Translations under genes and position numbers: made by a program
Notes under the pieces: generated by a model
Databases searched by the model: none
Seen by the model: only the letters and a program-made list of their open reading frames with translations
What the model was told of the DNA's origin: nothing
In this document: one piece after another, positions 18,995 through 55,658 of the stretch
Layout of the letters: each line of letters starts with the position of its first letter
How positions within the stretch are numbered: the first letter of the stretch is position 1
From: a virus
Direction: 5' to 3' (one strand)
Length of the DNA: 64,000 nucleotides
IMG/VR virus record: IMGVR_UViG_3300031951_000060
Span: 36,598 to 100,597 of that record

Positions 18995-20440
18995 ATGAAT
19001 ATAATTATTGCAGGCGGAGGTACGGCTGGTTGGATTGCTGCTTATTTTATTAATAATGCTCAACCAAATATGCATAACATTACAGTCATTGAATCTTCTC
19101 AGATAGGCATTGTCGGTGCAGGAGAGGCTGCTGCTGGATCTTTGTTTGAATTATTGGATGGTGGATTTTTTAATAAAAAAATACCTATTCAGGATTTTAT
19201 TAATAGCACAGATGCAACTACAAAGATGGGGATTAGACATACAAATTGGGCTGGTAAAAATGAATCTTATTTTGCTCCTATTGACCTAAGTCCTACAACA
19301 CAAAAAAATATAGATTATATTTTTAACTATGTACTACATAAGTATGGTCCATCTAAAATTCATCTCGCCTCTAGACTTGGAATTCGTTATGAAAATAACC
19401 AATTCGATAGAGGCAATGGATTACATTTTGACGGCCACAAAGTTGGCAAGTTTTTTAAAGAACATACGATAGGAAAGAATGTTTCTGTCATAGATGCAAA
19501 AATATTAAAGGTTAATATAGGTGCAGATGGCAGGATTGAATCTTTATTCCTAGATAACGACCAAACCATTGAAGGCGATCTTTTTATAGATTGCACTGGT
19601 TTTAGGCGTGTATTAATTAGCGAAACAGATGCAAAGTGGAAATCAGTTTCAGATATTTTAACAGTTAATTCCGCAATGCCGTTTATTGAACCATATGCTG
19701 ATAATAATAATTTTATTCCAGAAACTGGGGCAACCGCTTTAAGTTCTGGCTGGATGTTTGATATTCCACTAAAAACACGCAGAGGTATGGGATATATATA
19801 TGATAATAACTTTATATCTGATGATGATGCTAAACTTGAATTAGAAGAGAAAATTGGACATGAGGTAGAGCCAATTAAAATTATTAGGTTCGACACTGGA
19901 TATTTCGAAAAATCATGGAATAAAAATGTTTTGTCTTTAGGACTTGCCTCTTCATTTTTAGAGCCATTAGAGGCTACATCAATTCATAATACTATTGCTC
20001 AGTTGCATGTTTTTGTCAATCACTTTTTTAATGGTCATCTTCAGTCAATTAACAATGAACTAAGTCAACAGATGTACAATAAGTTAATATCAAGACTAAA
20101 CGAAACAAGTATTGATTTTATTTCTTTGCACTATCAAGGCAAAAGAAATGATTCAGAATTTTGGCAAAATATATATCATAACAATCTTGCAACAGATACT
20201 GTAAAAGAGATAGTTAATGTTTGTCAGTATAGAATCCCCACTATAGCAATATATGATGGAGTTATAGGATCCTACGGAATACCTCTTGCAAAATGGAATA
20301 TGGTTGGTCTTGGGCTAATCAATGAAGAGCAGGCATTGACAGAATTAATGATGTCTGATACACTAGATATTGCTAAGACTGAATACGATATTTTTAGAAA
20401 TACAGTATTAAGTAAAATGCAAATTCTAAAGTCTACTTGA
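18995..20440 (+). CDS. Flavin-dependent (tryptophan-type) halogenase family protein
   Basis: GGGTAG, GAGEA, TTKMGI (catalytic Lys position), FIDCTG, GWMFDIP, FLEPLEATSI. Confidence 0.88.
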   Translation: MNIIIAGGGTAGWIAAYFINNAQPNMHNITVIESSQIGIVGAGEAAAGSLFELLDGGFFNKKIPIQDFINSTDATTKMGIRHTNWAGKNESYFAPIDLSPTTQKNIDYIFNYVLHKYGPSKIHLASRLGIRYENNQFDRGNGLHFDGHKVGKFFKEHTIGKNVSVIDAKILKVNIGADGRIESLFLDNDQTIEGDLFIDCTGFRRVLISETDAKWKSVSDILTVNSAMPFIEPYADNNNFIPETGATALSSGWMFDIPLKTRRGMGYIYDNNFISDDDAKLELEEKIGHEVEPIKIIRFDTGYFEKSWNKNVLSLGLASSFLEPLEATSIHNTIAQLHVFVNHFFNGHLQSINNELSQQMYNKLISRLNETSIDFISLHYQGKRNDSEFWQNIYHNNLATDTVKEIVNVCQYRIPTIAIYDGVIGSYGIPLAKWNMVGLGLINEEQALTELMMSDTLDIAKTEYDIFRNTVLSKMQILKST

Positions 20441-38135: not shown

Positions 38136-39587
38136 ATGCGTATATTAGGTATTAATGAAACAACACATGATGCATCTATAACATTAATTGATGATGCAAA
38201 GATAATTTTTGCTGGGCATGCTGAAAGATTTAGTAAACAAAAAAATGATTGGTTTACTAATGATGAGTTAATAGATTATGCGTTGTCATTTGGAAAACCA
38301 GACACAATAGCATATTATGAAAATAGATGGTTAAAAAAGGCCAGAATCTTGACTCGTGGAGGTTTCGGTGGCAATAAGCCATACTATCTAGAACGAAAAG
38401 ATCTTAGGTGGATTCCTCGTGAATCTTTTAGCCATCATTATTCTCATGCTTCAGCAGGTTACTATACAAGTAAATTTAATGATGCAGTTATAGTAGTTCT
38501 TGATGCCATTGGAGAATATAACACTTCTACTATTTGGGTTGGCGAAGGCACAAAAATTAGACAGGTATATAAAAAGAATTATCCGTATAGTTTTGGATTA
38601 TTCTATTCTGCTTTTACGCAGTTGGTTGGACTAAAGCCAAACGAAGAAGAATACATATTCATGGGAATGGCTGCTTATGGAGACTGGACAAGATATTATT
38701 CAAAAATTAAAGAATATTTTCCACATGTAGATATTCAAAAATATAATTTTCATAAAGGAATATATGATTGGGATGAGATAATAGATGATCAAGCAAAATT
38801 TGATATTGCTGCTGCTGTACAAAAGGTATATGAAGATAGGCTTGTAAACTTTATGGCAAAAGCACAACAACTAACTGGAAAAAGGAATTTGGTTTTTATG
38901 GGCGGATGCGCCTTAAACTGTGCAGCGAACACAATGCTTTGGAGAATGTTTGATGATGTTTGGATTATGCCAAACCCAGGCGATGCAGGATCTTCTCTTG
39001 GCGCTGCAGCCGCAGCCTATGGAAAACATTTAGATTGGAATCATCCATATCTAGGATATGATTTAGGTGGAAAATATCCAGTAACAGAAATAATTACTGG
39101 CTTGGTTAGGGATAAAATTGTAGCAGTGGCAACTGGAAAAGCAGAATATGGCCCAAGAGCATTGGGAAATAGAAGTATACTAGCAGACCCCAGGGATCCA
39201 AGCATTAAGGATAAAGTAAACCTAATTAAGAAGAGAGAACTTTTTAGACCATTTGCTCCAGTAGTTATGGAGGAATATGCACACAAATGGTTTAAAATGA
39301 ATTTTACAAGCCCTTATATGCAATATGCTGTTGAGTGTTTGCAACCAGACAAGATACCTGCCGTTATACATAAAGATGGAACTTCAAGGGTACAGACAGT
39401 AAATAAAGATCAGCATCCAGGTCTGTATGAAGTTTTGTCAAATTGGTATGCTATGACTGGAGTTCCTATATTACTTAACACTAGTTTAAATATAAAGGGG
39501 CAGCCATTAATTAATGATGAACAAGATATAATTAATTGGGAAAATCAGTATAATTTTAAAATTATTGGTGGTGGTAATAATGTTTAA
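38136..39587 (+). CDS. Carbamoyltransferase (NodU/CmcH/TobZ family)
   Basis: HDAS, ERF, HHYSHA, GGCALN, GDAG, EYGPRALG.RS, RPFAP, NTSLN. Confidence 0.92.
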   Translation: MRILGINETTHDASITLIDDAKIIFAGHAERFSKQKNDWFTNDELIDYALSFGKPDTIAYYENRWLKKARILTRGGFGGNKPYYLERKDLRWIPRESFSHHYSHASAGYYTSKFNDAVIVVLDAIGEYNTSTIWVGEGTKIRQVYKKNYPYSFGLFYSAFTQLVGLKPNEEEYIFMGMAAYGDWTRYYSKIKEYFPHVDIQKYNFHKGIYDWDEIIDDQAKFDIAAAVQKVYEDRLVNFMAKAQQLTGKRNLVFMGGCALNCAANTMLWRMFDDVWIMPNPGDAGSSLGAAAAAYGKHLDWNHPYLGYDLGGKYPVTEIITGLVRDKIVAVATGKAEYGPRALGNRSILADPRDPSIKDKVNLIKKRELFRPFAPVVMEEYAHKWFKMNFTSPYMQYAVECLQPDKIPAVIHKDGTSRVQTVNKDQHPGLYEVLSNWYAMTGVPILLNTSLNIKGQPLINDEQDIINWENQYNFKIIGGGNNV

Positions 39588-46592: not shown

Positions 46593-46811
46593 ATGAATAT
46601 ACAATCATTAGAACAAATGGAACAAATTGTAAAAAATAGCAAATCACTTTCATGGGATGGGTGGGATGTTATAAATAGATATAAGTCTGAAAAGGCCAGG
46701 ACGTCGAAGTATGGACAATATATTAATGGTAGATGGTATATGGTAAAAAGATTTAAGCCTACACGTAATGGCTGGGATATACCAGAAAGTTTAATAAATG
46801 CACAAACTTAA
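46593..46811 (+). CDS. Hypothetical protein
   Basis: LSWDGWDV motif, RBS. Confidence 0.55.
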   Translation: MNIQSLEQMEQIVKNSKSLSWDGWDVINRYKSEKARTSKYGQYINGRWYMVKRFKPTRNGWDIPESLINAQT

Positions 46812-47088
46812 ATGGAAAGATAGTGCAGCCTGCATAGATTATGACACTAACATATTTTTTGATAAATATGAAGAAGAAGAGCCACTGAGATTAGCGGTTG
46901 ATAAGTTATGCATGAAATGTCCTGTTGTAAAAACTTGTTTTGCTGTTGGTGTTTCCACAAAAGAGTGGGGAGTTTGGGGCGGGATTTATTTAGAAAGTGG
47001 AACAATATCTAAAGAGTTTAATAATCATAAAACCGCACAAGATTGGGCAGATATATGGCAAAACCTAACAATGGGAAAAGATGAATAA
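46798..47088 (+). CDS. whiB: WhiB-family Fe-S transcription factor
   Basis: W...AAC, CMKCPVVKTC, GVWGG. Confidence 0.9.
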   Translation: MHKLKWKDSAACIDYDTNIFFDKYEEEEPLRLAVDKLCMKCPVVKTCFAVGVSTKEWGVWGGIYLESGTISKEFNNHKTAQDWADIWQNLTMGKDE

Positions 47089-52669: not shown

Positions 52670-53824
52670 ATGCCGTACAAGATTGGTGCTAAAGGGTCAT
52701 ATGGTTGTGATGGATATCCAGCCCTAAAAGAAGGCACCAACGAGGTTATGGGATGTCATAAGACTCGTTCTGAGGCTGCAGCACAGATTTACGCTATAAA
52801 CCGCTCTGAGGGCAATATAGGCAAAGCAATGGTCAAAGAGGGCGACATGGTTATGGCCCCACATGAAGAAGAAATGTATGTTGGTCGTGTTGTTCATGTT
52901 ATGACAGAAGGAATGTTAGGAACTCCAGGATCAGAATATTCCATTGAGGCAAGCCCCACTGAGCCAGCAATATTAATACAATTATTTGAAATGGAAGAAG
53001 GCGGTCTTGAAGAGACTGAGTATTTTGTTGGAGCAAAAGCATCAGAAGTAATGGTTATGCCTTCATTAGAATCAAACATAGGAATGGATAAATCTGTATC
53101 TGGCAGTCCTTCTGATGATGAAGAGGATGACGAAGACGAAGAGGATGATGTTGAAAAAGCATATGAAGGATGTGGTTGTCCAATGTGTAAAGAATTAGAT
53201 GTAACCTGTGACCAATGTCCTCAATGTCAATCTGGTGAAATGAAGTCAGACTGCTGCGCCAATGTAAACAAAAAGGCCCCATGCTGGGATGGGTACGTGC
53301 AAAGAGGGATGAAGCCTGGTGATGGCGGACGCATGGTTCCCAATTGTGTTCCCGCAGAAAAAGCAGACGATCTTTGGGAAGATGATGACACGGTAGTTTA
53401 TGAAACAGATTCAGTATCCAAGGCTGAGGGGTATTCTCCACCAGCAGGTGCTCGTGCAGCAGCACGTAAAGCAATTAAATTCAAAGAGCAGGGTAAAGCA
53501 AAAGGCGCAGGTACATCAGTAGGGTGGACTCGTGCAGGACAACTTGCAAGAGGTGAAACACTTTCACTAAGCACAGTTAAAAGAATGTATTCTTATTTTT
53601 CTCGTCATGAGGTAGATAAAAAGGGGAAGGATTGGGCGAATCAATCTAATCCGTCTAATGGGTACATTATGTGGTTAGCATGGGGTGGGGATGCTGGCTT
53701 TGCATGGTCACGTCGTATCGTGAATGCAGAAAAGGATAAGGCTTTATTTGCTGATACCTTTAATTCAATAGAAAAACAAAGCAAGAAAGTCCGTGGTAGC
53801 GGTAATGTCGTCTGGGAAATTTAA
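52670..53824 (+). CDS. Modular head-associated protein
   Basis: CH.TR..A..Q..A, CWDGY...VPNCVP and RM.SYFSRH...W.AWGG modules typical of phage head proteins. Confidence 0.55.
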   Translation: MPYKIGAKGSYGCDGYPALKEGTNEVMGCHKTRSEAAAQIYAINRSEGNIGKAMVKEGDMVMAPHEEEMYVGRVVHVMTEGMLGTPGSEYSIEASPTEPAILIQLFEMEEGGLEETEYFVGAKASEVMVMPSLESNIGMDKSVSGSPSDDEEDDEDEEDDVEKAYEGCGCPMCKELDVTCDQCPQCQSGEMKSDCCANVNKKAPCWDGYVQRGMKPGDGGRMVPNCVPAEKADDLWEDDDTVVYETDSVSKAEGYSPPAGARAAARKAIKFKEQGKAKGAGTSVGWTRAGQLARGETLSLSTVKRMYSYFSRHEVDKKGKDWANQSNPSNGYIMWLAWGGDAGFAWSRRIVNAEKDKALFADTFNSIEKQSKKVRGSGNVVWEI

Positions 53825-53945
53825 AAGACACGACAAGTTTAATCCTATTCAAATTAAAGATGGGATGATTGTTCGTCTTAGAAAAGATGGGACAATAAAA
53901 GCAGTCCTCGGCAAATTCGGTGAATATAAGAAGGATAAAAAATAA
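53805..53945 (+). CDS. Small basic hypothetical protein (46 aa)
   Basis: MSSGKFKRHD...; TAATG-coupled to next gene. Confidence 0.5.
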   Translation: MSSGKFKRHDKFNPIQIKDGMIVRLRKDGTIKAVLGKFGEYKKDKK

Positions 53946-54337
53946 TGGCACTACATAATCAATTATTAGTAAATGGATACTCAATCAATCCAATCAAAAT
54001 AGAAAAAGATGCTATAGATTGGATGACAGATCTTGTTAATAGTATAGATATGAAAATCATCCAAGGTCCATATGCCTCATACGTTAGCAAAGAGGGAAAC
54101 AGAGGTTTAACATGTGTAGTTATGATAGAGACTTCACATATAGCATTACACATATGGGATGAGCCATCTCCTGGAGAAATTCAGTTCGATCTTTATACCT
54201 GTGGTGAACTTAATATCGATTTAGTTCTTAAAAAATTAGAAAATGGATTAGGATTATTTGATTATAAGTATATCGTGTTAGAAAGAGAAACTGGCTTTAA
54301 TGTTTTAAATATAAATGGCAAGGACCAAACAAAATAA
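53945..54337 (+). CDS. speD: S-adenosylmethionine decarboxylase proenzyme (pyruvoyl-dependent)
   Basis: G.T...IETSHIALHIW...DLYTCG. Confidence 0.85.
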   Translation: MALHNQLLVNGYSINPIKIEKDAIDWMTDLVNSIDMKIIQGPYASYVSKEGNRGLTCVVMIETSHIALHIWDEPSPGEIQFDLYTCGELNIDLVLKKLENGLGLFDYKYIVLERETGFNVLNINGKDQTK

Positions 54338-54338
54338 A

Positions 54339-54434
54339 ATGGGGTCCGTTGTCAAGAAGCGTCGCAAGCGCATGGCCAAGAAGAAGCACAGAAAGAGATT
54401 AAAAAGACAACGATGGGCAAGACGGAACAAGTAA
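54339..54434 (+). CDS. 30S ribosomal protein bS22 (31 aa, not in ORF track)
   Basis: MGSVVKKRRKRMAKKKHRKRLKRQRWARRNK matches actinobacterial bS22 [21 protein letters not shown]. Confidence 0.88.
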   Translation: MGSVVKKRRKRMAKKKHRKRLKRQRWARRNK

Positions 54435-54694
54435 AAGAACTAATTCATTTCACAGCAGACTGGTGTGTTCCATGCAAAAAAATGGAACCAATAATAAATC
54501 AGTTTATTTTAGATAATCCTGAAATAAAATATTCTAAAATAAATATAGAAAAGGATAAGGCTGATTTTGATTTTTTTAATAAAAAGTATAACATTATGTC
54601 TGTTCCAACCTTTATGGGGTTTGTTGATCAAAAACTAATAGATACTCATTCTGGAGTTGCATCTGCCTTTACATTAAAATCTTTATTCGGATAA
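54413..54694 (+). CDS. trxA: Thioredoxin
   Basis: FTADWCVPCK, SVPT. Confidence 0.88.
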   Translation: MGKTEQVKELIHFTADWCVPCKKMEPIINQFILDNPEIKYSKINIEKDKADFDFFNKKYNIMSVPTFMGFVDQKLIDTHSGVASAFTLKSLFG

Positions 54695-54838
54695 AAAGTT
54701 TTTAAATAACTCCATAATCTCTGCAGTATATTTATCATAATCTATATCCAAAATTAAATGGCCATCTGGCAATTTATGAACTTTAATTTCTTGTCCTATT
54801 TTGAACAAAATGTCTTTTAACTGATGTTGTAGTTCCAT
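54683..54838 (-). CDS. Small hypothetical protein (51 aa)
   Basis: MELQHQLKDILFKIGQ... intact ORF. Confidence 0.45.
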   Translation of the reverse strand: MELQHQLKDILFKIGQEIKVHKLPDGHLILDIDYDKYTAEIMELFKNFLSE

Positions 54839-54851
54839 GATCCTATTTTAG

Positions 54852-54924
54852 CACCCCTGGTTGGATTCGAACCAACGACAAACGGATTAGAAGTCCGCTA
54901 CTCTATCCACTGAGTTACAGGGGT
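54852..54924 (-). tRNA. tRNA-Arg (TCT)
   Basis: ACCCCTG/CAGGGGT, GCGGA-CTTCTAA-TCCGT, TTCGAAT. Confidence 0.93.
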
Positions 54925-54930
54925 ATATTG

Positions 54931-55308
54931 TTATGTATATACTATCTTACTGATGCCAGACTTAACAATTACATCATAACAAAATTCACAAGGTCTTGAT
55001 AGTCTTGTTTGGCCAGATCTATTAACTCTTGCAATGTATATTTTTGCACCCTTTAGCCCAGAAACCTTTTTAATAGCATCAACTTCGGCATGAATATGAG
55101 CATCTGCAATGATATCTTCTTTATTATTATTCAATACTTGAGGATGGTTCCTTACCTTATTTATACCAGTAGATATAATTCTTCCGCCACGAACAATGAT
55201 TGCTCCGTGCTTGTATCTTCTAACCTGTGATGATCTTGCCAGATTAGCAGCAATAGCCAGATATCTTTCTTCTGACTTAGAGAAATTACTTACAACTTCC
55301 TTCGGCAT
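54931..55308 (-). CDS. Zn-dependent cytidine/dCMP-type deaminase
   Basis: HGAII, G.N, HAE, SRPCEFC. Confidence 0.85.
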   Translation of the reverse strand: MPKEVVSNFSKSEERYLAIAANLARSSQVRRYKHGAIIVRGGRIISTGINKVRNHPQVLNNNKEDIIADAHIHAEVDAIKKVSGLKGAKIYIARVNRSGQTRLSRPCEFCYDVIVKSGISKIVYT

Positions 55309-55343
55309 TTACAACACTTACCTTATCTTTTAAATAACTTACG

Positions 55344-55416
55344 TACCCCTGGTTGGATTCGAACCAACGCTTGCACAATTTTAAGTCGTGTGCCTCTACC
55401 ACTGGGCTACAAGGGC
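55344..55416 (-). tRNA. tRNA-Leu (TAA), short variable loop
   Basis: GCCCTTG/CAGGGGT, CACGA-CTTAAAA-TTGTG, TTCGAAT. Confidence 0.88.
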
Positions 55417-55583
55417 TTGGGTGCCAGTCACGAAGTCCGTTTCTACGGAAGAATCAACTACTGGCTCTGCTCCTTAGATGCTGTCTGCTTGGGCCTGTTC
55501 GACACAGGTTATTCAACGACTACCACCAGCGTAATTTTCAGGGCAGTTGTACTCATCGAGAGGTCGAATTCCTGATGAGCCTT
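55417..55583 (-). ncRNA. Candidate structured ncRNA between tRNA-Met and tRNA-Leu
   Basis: GC-richer non-coding 167 nt with four hairpins: GCTCATC/GATGAGT, CTGCC/GGTAG, CCTGT/ACAGG, GCCAGT/ACTGGC enclosing TCCGT/ACGGA. Confidence 0.5.
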
Positions 55584-55584
55584 G

Positions 55585-55658
55585 TAGAGCAGGTAGGACT
55601 TGAACCTACGATAACCGAATTATGAGTTCGGGGCCTTGACCAACTTGGCTACTGCTCC
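55585..55658 (-). tRNA. tRNA with CAT anticodon (elongator Met or Ile2)
   Basis: GGAGCAG/CTGCTCT, CCGAA-CTCATAA-TTCGG, TTCAAGT; lacks initiator GGG/CCC. Confidence 0.9.

Follow-up and report, generated by a model that had tools for sequence, protein, structure and literature searches.

A 31-codon gene of a freshwater actinophage encodes a homolog of the actinobacterial ribosomal protein bS22

The DNA analyzed here, referred to as the window, is a stretch of 64,000 nucleotides that makes up the last 64 kb of a 100.6-kb IMG/VR virus record, with an estimated completeness of 93% and a GC content of 36.7%. Phage hallmark genes in the window encode a DnaB helicase, a DnaE-like polymerase, a terminase, and a tail protein. 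The gene of interest is a short open reading frame (ORF) at the start of a thioredoxin gene, and it is listed below with the features discussed alongside it, by window position.

46798 to 47088, plus strand: WhiB-family gene (PF02467, 45.2 bits, over the cutoff), a marker of an actinobacterial host
52670 to 53824, plus strand: gene for a 384-amino-acid protein, termed the anchor gene, with relatives in 271 viral contigs
53793 to 53945, plus strand: small conserved gene (50 amino acids) between the anchor gene and an accessory slot, following the anchor gene in most relatives
53945 to 54337, plus strand: speD, S-adenosylmethionine decarboxylase (Pfam AdoMet_dc, E=3.7e-12)
54339 to 54434, plus strand: bS22 gene, 31 codons plus TAA, with NF047430 and PF08213 matches
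54339 to 54389, plus strand: cellular-like segment of the bS22 gene, codons 1 to 17, GC3 of 0.88, a putative gene-conversion tract
54390 to 54431, plus strand: phage-type half of the bS22 gene, codons 18 to 31, with Arg20, Gln24, Trp26, and an Arg-Arg-Asn-Lys end
54413 to 54694, plus strand: thioredoxin gene (Pfam Thioredoxin, E=6.6e-12)
54851 to 54924, minus strand: tRNA-Arg(TCT), found by ARAGORN and Rfam
54931 to 55308, minus strand: small cytidine/dCMP deaminase-family gene (Pfam dCMP_cyt_deam_1, E=1.9e-13)
55343 to 55416, minus strand: tRNA-Leu(TAA), found by ARAGORN and Rfam
55584 to 55658, minus strand: tRNA-Met(CAT), found by ARAGORN and Rfam

A check of the sequence placed the ATG of the ORF at 54339 and its TAA at 54432 to 54434, 31 codons in all, with a gap of 1 nt after the speD stop codon (TAA, 54335 to 54337) and with the thioredoxin ATG at 54413 lying inside its 3' end, an overlap of 22 nt. 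A first-pass annotation had described this ORF, its position directly behind speD, and its overlap with the thioredoxin start, and its coordinates and peptide were exactly reproduced. The same annotation had proposed that the ORF is a bS22 homolog overlooked by ORF callers and had suggested a search with the COX24 domain, and both the profile matches and the matches to structure chains bear this out. Against the NCBIfam equivalog model NF047430 (ribo_bS22; curated cutoff, 34 bits), the peptide scored 51.7 bits (E=6.7e-14) over model positions 1 to 31 of 31, and against Pfam PF08213 (COX24_C; cutoff, 23 bits), it scored 33.1 bits. The six-frame profile search of the phage's own genome recovered the gene at 49.3 bits. 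A match of this kind to both profiles lies far beyond what chance would be expected to produce.

The phage peptide could furthermore be aligned end to end with the bS22 chains of the solved ribosomes of M. smegmatis, M. tuberculosis, and Cutibacterium acnes (PDB chains matched, 8crx_X and 5o5j). Seventeen proteins with 80 to 87% identity were recovered when 1.84 billion representatives were searched exhaustively with phmmer. All of them are actinobacterial-type bS22, and most had been miscalled with false N-terminal extensions; identity to the best cellular representatives is 81 to 87%. GTG or TTG is the start codon of many cellular bS22 genes, which protein databases list with such miscalled long N-terminal extensions. 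Of the 31 residues of the phage peptide, 18 (~58%) are Lys or Arg; cellular bS22 proteins have 31 to 33 residues. We also considered a 39-codon reading from an ATG at 54315 and rejected it because the extension is not conserved across homologs: all 16 phage copies known to us (see below) begin at Met/Val-Gly-Ser, and in the relatives, this position is often closely preceded by a stop codon. Judged by homology, the sequence from 54339 to 54434 is a phage-encoded homolog of the actinobacterial small-subunit ribosomal protein bS22.

The host can be assigned at the level of the phylum. The WhiB-family gene and a DnaE-like polymerase with 55% identity to the polymerases of ~127-kb Streptomyces phages argue for an actinobacterial host, and the sequences nearest to the phage bS22 are all actinobacterial. 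As read from these genes, the host is an actinobacterium, and ribosomes of that phylum carry bS22 of the matching type. bS22 is used by the ribosomes of Actinomycetota or Bacteroidota, and the host evidence places the phage within that range. Fourteen DNA runs, which come from at least 11 studies and are for the most part labeled freshwater, contain the stretch nearly unchanged. Two further genes of the window are unusual auxiliary genes for an actinophage, namely, a tryptophan-halogenase-like gene at 18995 to 20440 (PHROG 2928, E=5e-97) and a Nol-type carbamoyltransferase gene at 38136 to 39587 (PHROG 1601, E=5e-107).

By means of degenerate (IUPAC) DNA patterns, combined with blastn, we identified 15 further copies (2 on viral contigs and 13 on metagenome contigs), for a total of 16. 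The scan of 2.9 million IMG/VR contigs with patterns for the bS22 motif yielded only two other contigs, L002 and L030/L143, whose copies exceed the curated NF047430 cutoff (45.1 and 42.4 bits for L002 and L030, respectively), and the pattern for the phage-type C-terminal motif yielded the 13 metagenome contigs. A tblastn search of the peptide against the phage collection gave no match, the low-complexity filter probably masking the peptide. Homologs of the window phage's genes adjoin the ORF in 15/15 further contigs, all of which belong to one phage family. The 16 copies fall into 13 nucleotide sequences, which encode 7 different proteins; every copy is 31 codons long, and 3 copies have a GTG start.

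These copies carry a clear signal of selection at the protein level. A single protein is encoded by seven nucleotide sequences that differ by 1 to 11 synonymous and approximately zero nonsynonymous differences (one pair with an Nd of 1.0), and between more distant phage copies, the synonymous sites are saturated while amino acid changes remain few, which argues for purifying selection. Since the metagenome matches had been picked by a pattern over codons 14 to 26, pN/pS was recalculated on the pattern-free codons only (2 to 13 and 27 to 31), where pS is 0.74, pN is 0.13, and pN/pS is 0.17. No frameshift or stop codon was found within the 16 phage copies. The first-pass annotation had called for a dN/dS comparison and had named lack of conservation as grounds for giving up the claim; the comparison favors a conserved ORF, and the 16 undisrupted copies contradict the latter concern. 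On this pattern of substitutions, we regard the phage bS22 gene as a translated gene under purifying selection.

Within the family, the gene is not universal. Across ~140 related loci, an HMM search detected no bS22 outside L002, L030, and the record to which the window belongs, and the genomes of four relatives with 90 to 100% completeness lack it altogether. Given this absence from most relatives, bS22 is an accessory gene carried by a minority of a family of ~100-kb freshwater actinophages. A crude scan of the phage genome for other small Lys/Arg-rich ORFs, such as a bL37-like one, found none. The sole full bS22 gene in a collection of 50,697 phage records, that of MT836077.1 (L307; "UNVERIFIED: Bacteriophage sp.," human feces), was set aside. 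This gene has 92.9% nucleotide identity to a high-GC cellular gene and lies beside histone-deacetylase-family and NAD-dependent epimerase genes, with no phage gene in the 8.5 kb examined, and on account of these bacterial-looking neighbors, we judge the record to be a probable bacterial fragment rather than an instance of phage bS22.

We consider it probable, from sequence comparison, that the ORF encodes a functional phage bS22 that would most likely be loaded at the pocket of the host 30S subunit used by cellular bS22, supplementing or replacing the host protein. The residue signature bears on this reading. Seven distinct phage proteins were compared with 50 distinct cellular proteins, the cellular sample being biased toward Trp26 forms by the method of collection. 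Ser3, Lys6, Arg8, Met12, Lys14 to Lys16, His17, Lys19, and Leu21 are identical in 7/7 phage and 50/50 cellular proteins, and the phage proteins retain all cellular-invariant positions save Thr24 and Arg28. The rRNA-contacting core is intact in the phage copies, including Lys16, which in M. smegmatis bS22 forms a salt bridge to the h44 backbone at the aminoglycoside pocket (PMC10081302). Two positions set the phage version apart: Arg20 occurs in 7/7 phage and 0/50 cellular proteins, where Leu or Met (in one case His) is found instead, and position 24 is Ser or Gln in six of the seven phage proteins and Thr in every cellular sequence sampled. The window copy combines Arg20, Gln24, and Trp26 with the Arg-Arg-Asn-Lys end.

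Trp26 itself was considered as a phage-specific mark and rejected, as it is present in more than 120 cellular genomes. Together with the 31-residue length and the Arg-Arg-Asn-Lys end, it also occurs in Acidimicrobiia, other deep Actinomycetota, and small low-GC genomes; none of the cellular sequences sampled combines Ala13 with Trp26. The first-pass remark that the C-terminal half diverges is therefore correct insofar as this half differs, but the features that it shares with many cellular Actinomycetota mark it as an old phage allele or subtype with few phage-specific changes and not as a product of decay. A BLAST search of the peptide against 401 Actinomycetota genomes gave matches in 208, with identities of 61 to 81% and a best match of 81%; this tally includes 12 genomes flagged as unpublished, on which no sequence-level statement rests. 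Among the cellular genes (L157 to L306), two subtypes can be discerned. One has Ala13, Val, Ile, or His at position 26, and 32 to 33 residues and is Streptomyces- and Mycobacterium-like; the other has Arg13 together with Trp26 and 31 to 33 residues and is found in Acidimicrobiia, Humimicrobiia, and small low-GC genomes.

A peptide this basic might also act away from its normal ribosomal site, as a free polycation that inhibits translation in the host or in competitors, resembles an antimicrobial peptide, or neutralizes nucleic acid charge. Free C. acnes bS22 inhibits the growth of several bacteria and, when present at 80 uM, lowers the output of an E. coli cell-free translation system by 80% (PMC10085706), ~58% of the residues of the phage peptide are Lys or Arg, and the polyamine gene speD adjoins bS22 in the window phage. 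In a generic polycation, however, the nonbasic residues would be expendable, yet Gly2, Ser3, Met12, His17, Leu21, Trp26, and Asn30 are invariant across the phage copies, each of which has exactly 31 residues. In addition, among bS22-bearing relatives, a speD homolog was found only in L153, where it does not adjoin bS22. We accordingly hold this explanation to be unlikely.

The surroundings of the gene are stable on one side and variable on the other. bS22 always adjoins a homolog of the 384-amino-acid anchor gene, and across relatives, the site past the anchor and 50-amino-acid genes is a variable accessory slot: most relatives proceed directly to the next conserved gene, some carry a thioredoxin gene, and a few carry bS22 plus thioredoxin. 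The arrangement with speD directly upstream of bS22 plus thioredoxin is confined to the window phage. The anchor gene contains an Asp/Glu-rich acidic tract (53089 to 53156) whose length differs between strains, contigs from other runs skipping 66 nt there or having extra GAC/GAT repeats, and the C-terminal ~110 residues of its product match Vibrio, Roseobacter, Limnohabitans, and haloarchaeal virus proteins with varied annotations. At L002:727-760 and L153:398-430, bS22 lies divergent beside the anchor homolog with no same-direction gene upstream, and a TATACT hexamer ends ~7 nt before the ATG, so that a leaderless transcript may be produced there.

This variability bears on the proposal, made in the first-pass annotation, that bS22 belongs to a translation-takeover locus together with the nearby tRNAs and deaminase. 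The neighbors vary between relatives, as expected of an accessory slot, and the deaminase has its best NCBIfam match to ComEB, with TadA far weaker and all matches below the cutoff, which places it nearest to ComEB-type dCMP deaminases; the proposal finds no backing in these results. AGA makes up 51% of the Arg codons of the phage, and two of the three minus-strand tRNAs read phage-preferred AT-rich codons, a property common among phage tRNAs. Near the ORF, Rfam at a relaxed threshold detected the three tRNAs only. The 167-nt spacer between tRNA-Leu and tRNA-Met (55417 to 55583, minus strand; ~50% GC) has no Rfam match at that threshold. A scan for promoters and terminators found nothing next to the ORF, its totals being close overall to those for shuffled sequence (promoters, 13 versus 14.3; terminators, 6 versus 2.9).

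The junction with the thioredoxin gene raises the question of whether the ORF might mainly be a coupling device that feeds ribosomes to the thioredoxin start, its bS22 ancestry being incidental. The thioredoxin start overlaps the bS22 end in 13/16 copies, by 22 nt in 5 and through an ATGA (4 nt) in 8, even though the coupled thioredoxins are themselves merely 33 to 76% identical. Nevertheless, L002, L153, and L154, in which thioredoxin is absent downstream of bS22, have kept the same protein, and a coupling device requires neither amino acid conservation at a pN/pS of 0.17 nor an above-cutoff ribosomal-protein score. These points make a mere coupling role improbable.

The 5' half of the window copy has a history of its own. 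GC3 is 0.88 over codons 1 to 17 and 0.36 over codons 18 to 31, compared with 0.25 for the phage genome and 0.29 to 0.59 over codons 1 to 17 of the other 15 phage copies. The GC-rich codons TCC, GTC, CGC, and GCC pointed out in the first-pass annotation are thus present and are specific to the window copy among the 16. The 5' 51 nt have 92% identity to high-GC cellular bS22 genes and 63 to 86% identity to the other phage copies, whereas the 3' 42 nt have 60 to 74% identity to the phage copies and 40 to 52% identity to the cellular genes. In contigs of four public runs, depth rises 10- to 40-fold exactly over 54339 to 54388. The extra contigs match 54339/40 to 54385/88 only (at least 90%), are unlike the phage upstream, and continue downstream as cellular bS22 (...His-Lys-Lys-Leu-Leu-Lys-Lys-Thr-Arg-Ile-Gln); the cellular bS22 contigs sharing the first ~50 nt are 10- to 100-fold deeper. 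These high-depth, segment-only contigs indicate that abundant actinobacteria of the same waters bear an allele near phage codons 1 to 17. The 50-nt 5' segment, searched with up to 3 mismatches, had no match in the 401 Actinomycetota genomes. At the third-codon positions 54365 and 54377, most of the freshwater-run depth has T rather than C, which stems from the abundant cellular alleles and not from variation of the phage.

The simplest explanation of this mosaic is that the 5' half of a resident phage-type gene was replaced through recombination with a cellular, probably host, allele. We rate this as about an even call, given that, with so conserved a peptide, the signal in this 51-nt tract comes from ~15 synonymous sites and that selection for G/C-ending codons is an alternative. 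The first-pass suggestion of capture from the host holds to the extent that the 5' tract is best read as coming from a cellular allele, but the gene as a whole was not simply captured recently, as the saturated synonymous sites imply that phage-type bS22 has long resided in the phage family. For the same reason, it is very improbable that the gene is a neutral passenger, that is, recently acquired host DNA still to be lost. The cellular appearance of codons 1 to 17 and the absence of bS22 from most relatives would fit such a passenger, but the phage-type allele, with its saturated synonymous sites and zero frameshifts or stops, is present in 16 contigs; the derived Arg20 is common to all copies; and the window-type C-terminal motif matched no cellular genome, while 13/13 metagenome contigs with the phage-type motif belong to the phage family.

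The shared segment is also the type of repeat that can mislead assemblers, the first ~50 nt of the gene being common to cellular contigs of 10- to 100-fold greater depth. It is nevertheless hardly credible that assembly fused phage DNA with an abundant bS22 gene of cellular origin or that cellular DNA contaminates the viral record, since separately assembled DNA contigs from two other studies span speD, bS22, and thioredoxin with zero differences (53726 to 54898 and 53593 to 54413), the start codon is precisely where the cellular contigs part from the phage sequence and leave no shared 5' k-mer path, and 88 to 93% of the 31-mers of the stretch are present in each of 14 runs, drawn from at least 11 studies. 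The bS22 junctions are not an assembly artifact; the first-pass annotation had raised a chimeric assembly as a concern, and the exact reproduction of the junctions in independent freshwater runs speaks against it. These reproduced junctions, the hallmark genes, and flanking phage genes conserved in more than 80 related viral contigs identify the record as a genuine phage, with cellular contamination not being the source. As judged from sequence, the conservation pattern disfavors all four rival explanations.

With respect to expression, a metatranscriptome contig covers 54333 to 54419, reaching into the phage-specific half, although it may derive from DNA carryover or a related strain, and RNA-library contigs, which say nothing of strand or level, cover speD and part of the ORF. 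These contigs give a weak hint that the phage bS22 gene is transcribed.

Taking the ORF as a functional bS22, we propose the following model. First, bS22 would be made during infection from a long rightward transcript, with translation probably coupled to the speD stop codon upstream and, onward, to the thioredoxin gene that bS22 overlaps. The 31-residue basic helix would then bind the pocket of the host 30S subunit used by cellular bS22, which lies between helices h27, h44, and h45 of the 16S rRNA, at the subunit interface and beside the decoding center. In solved ribosomes, bS22 is located deep between these helices, and its contact with the 23S rRNA makes an additional bridge (PMC10085706), and other phage ribosomal proteins (bS21 and bL12) enter host ribosomes (PMC6375957); we infer the filling of the pocket by the phage peptide from this site and this precedent. 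The phage variant, with Arg20 and Ser/Gln24, would top up or replace the host bS22 and could maintain or adjust ribosome function in a cell under phage control. Historically, bS22 would be an old accessory gene of one family, and in the window phage, a cellular (host) allele probably replaced its codons 1 to 17 through recombination.

Several points weigh on this model. Deletion of bS22 in M. smegmatis leaves growth, global translation, and leaderless-mRNA translation unchanged and raises aminoglycoside sensitivity 2-fold (PMC10081302). By analogy, this near-absent phenotype makes the benefit of bS22 to the phage unclear, and the lack of an effect on leaderless mRNA runs against the first-pass idea of a differential effect on leaderless and Shine-Dalgarno translation. 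The pocket is deep, and the peptide may be able to exchange only into free 30S subunits or during the assembly of new ones; the Arg20 and Gln24 substitutions could, judging by the residues involved, change or weaken pocket binding. The absence of bS22 from most relatives likewise weighs against the model. A bolder version, which we consider doubtful, is that the Arg20, Ser/Gln24 variant at h27/h44/h45 alters the behavior of the decoding center in infection and that the N terminus is repeatedly rehomogenized with the host allele. Such an alteration might bias translation toward phage messages or shield h44/h45 from host defenses that target ribosomes or from aminoglycoside-like compounds. If this were true, the 5' half of bS22 would record the identity of the current host.

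Phage ribosomal proteins are already known as a class, and the actinobacterial-type phage bS22 family is new to it. The literature that we searched contains no report of a phage-borne bS22, in agreement with the first-pass annotation, which named mainly bS21, bL12, bL33, and bL9-like proteins as phage ribosomal proteins and not bS22. A large freshwater phage survey lists only S21 and L12. A counterpart of the phage protein is the cellular bS22 of Actinomycetota (NF047430 and PF08213; PDB 5O5J/5ZEB, 5V93, and 8CRX for M. smegmatis, M. tuberculosis, and C. acnes, respectively), to which it is linked by a full-length, above-cutoff match and a shared invariant core. Apart from Arg20 in place of Leu/Met and Gln/Ser24 in place of an otherwise invariant Thr, the phage version differs in that its gene lies among phage accessory genes and is coupled to thioredoxin. 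Among cellular proteins, C. acnes and F. johnsoniae bS22 have 37% identity (PMC10085706). A survey of viral ribosomal proteins (Mizuno et al. 2019) reports 14 proteins and mentions bS22 0 times (PMC6375957). The other counterparts are phage-encoded ribosomal proteins, among them bS21, bL12, bL9, bL31, and bL33 (PMC6375957; for bS21 phages, PMC9723584), whose genes are likewise small basic accessory genes of aquatic phages. Like the bS21/bL12 class, phage bS22 is clade conserved and host-like in sequence, and by analogy, its expected action would be incorporation into the host ribosome. In contrast to these proteins, which are located at the solvent-exposed platform or stalk, bS22 has its site in the subunit-interface pocket by h44, and its range is confined to hosts with bS22-containing ribosomes.

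The position beside h44, at the decoding center and the aminoglycoside site, thus distinguishes bS22 from the phage ribosomal proteins reported so far. bS22 is without a clear physiological role, and that phages keep a variant of it under strong selection argues for its importance under some condition; with its Arg20 and Ser/Gln24, the phage protein is a natural bS22 variant that lends itself to study in the existing M. smegmatis deletion strain. The gene is furthermore an example of the 31-codon genes that are systematically missed in viral annotation. Finally, the mosaic 5' half suggests ongoing recombination of ribosomal genes between phages and their hosts, and it could mark the hosts of uncultured freshwater actinophages.
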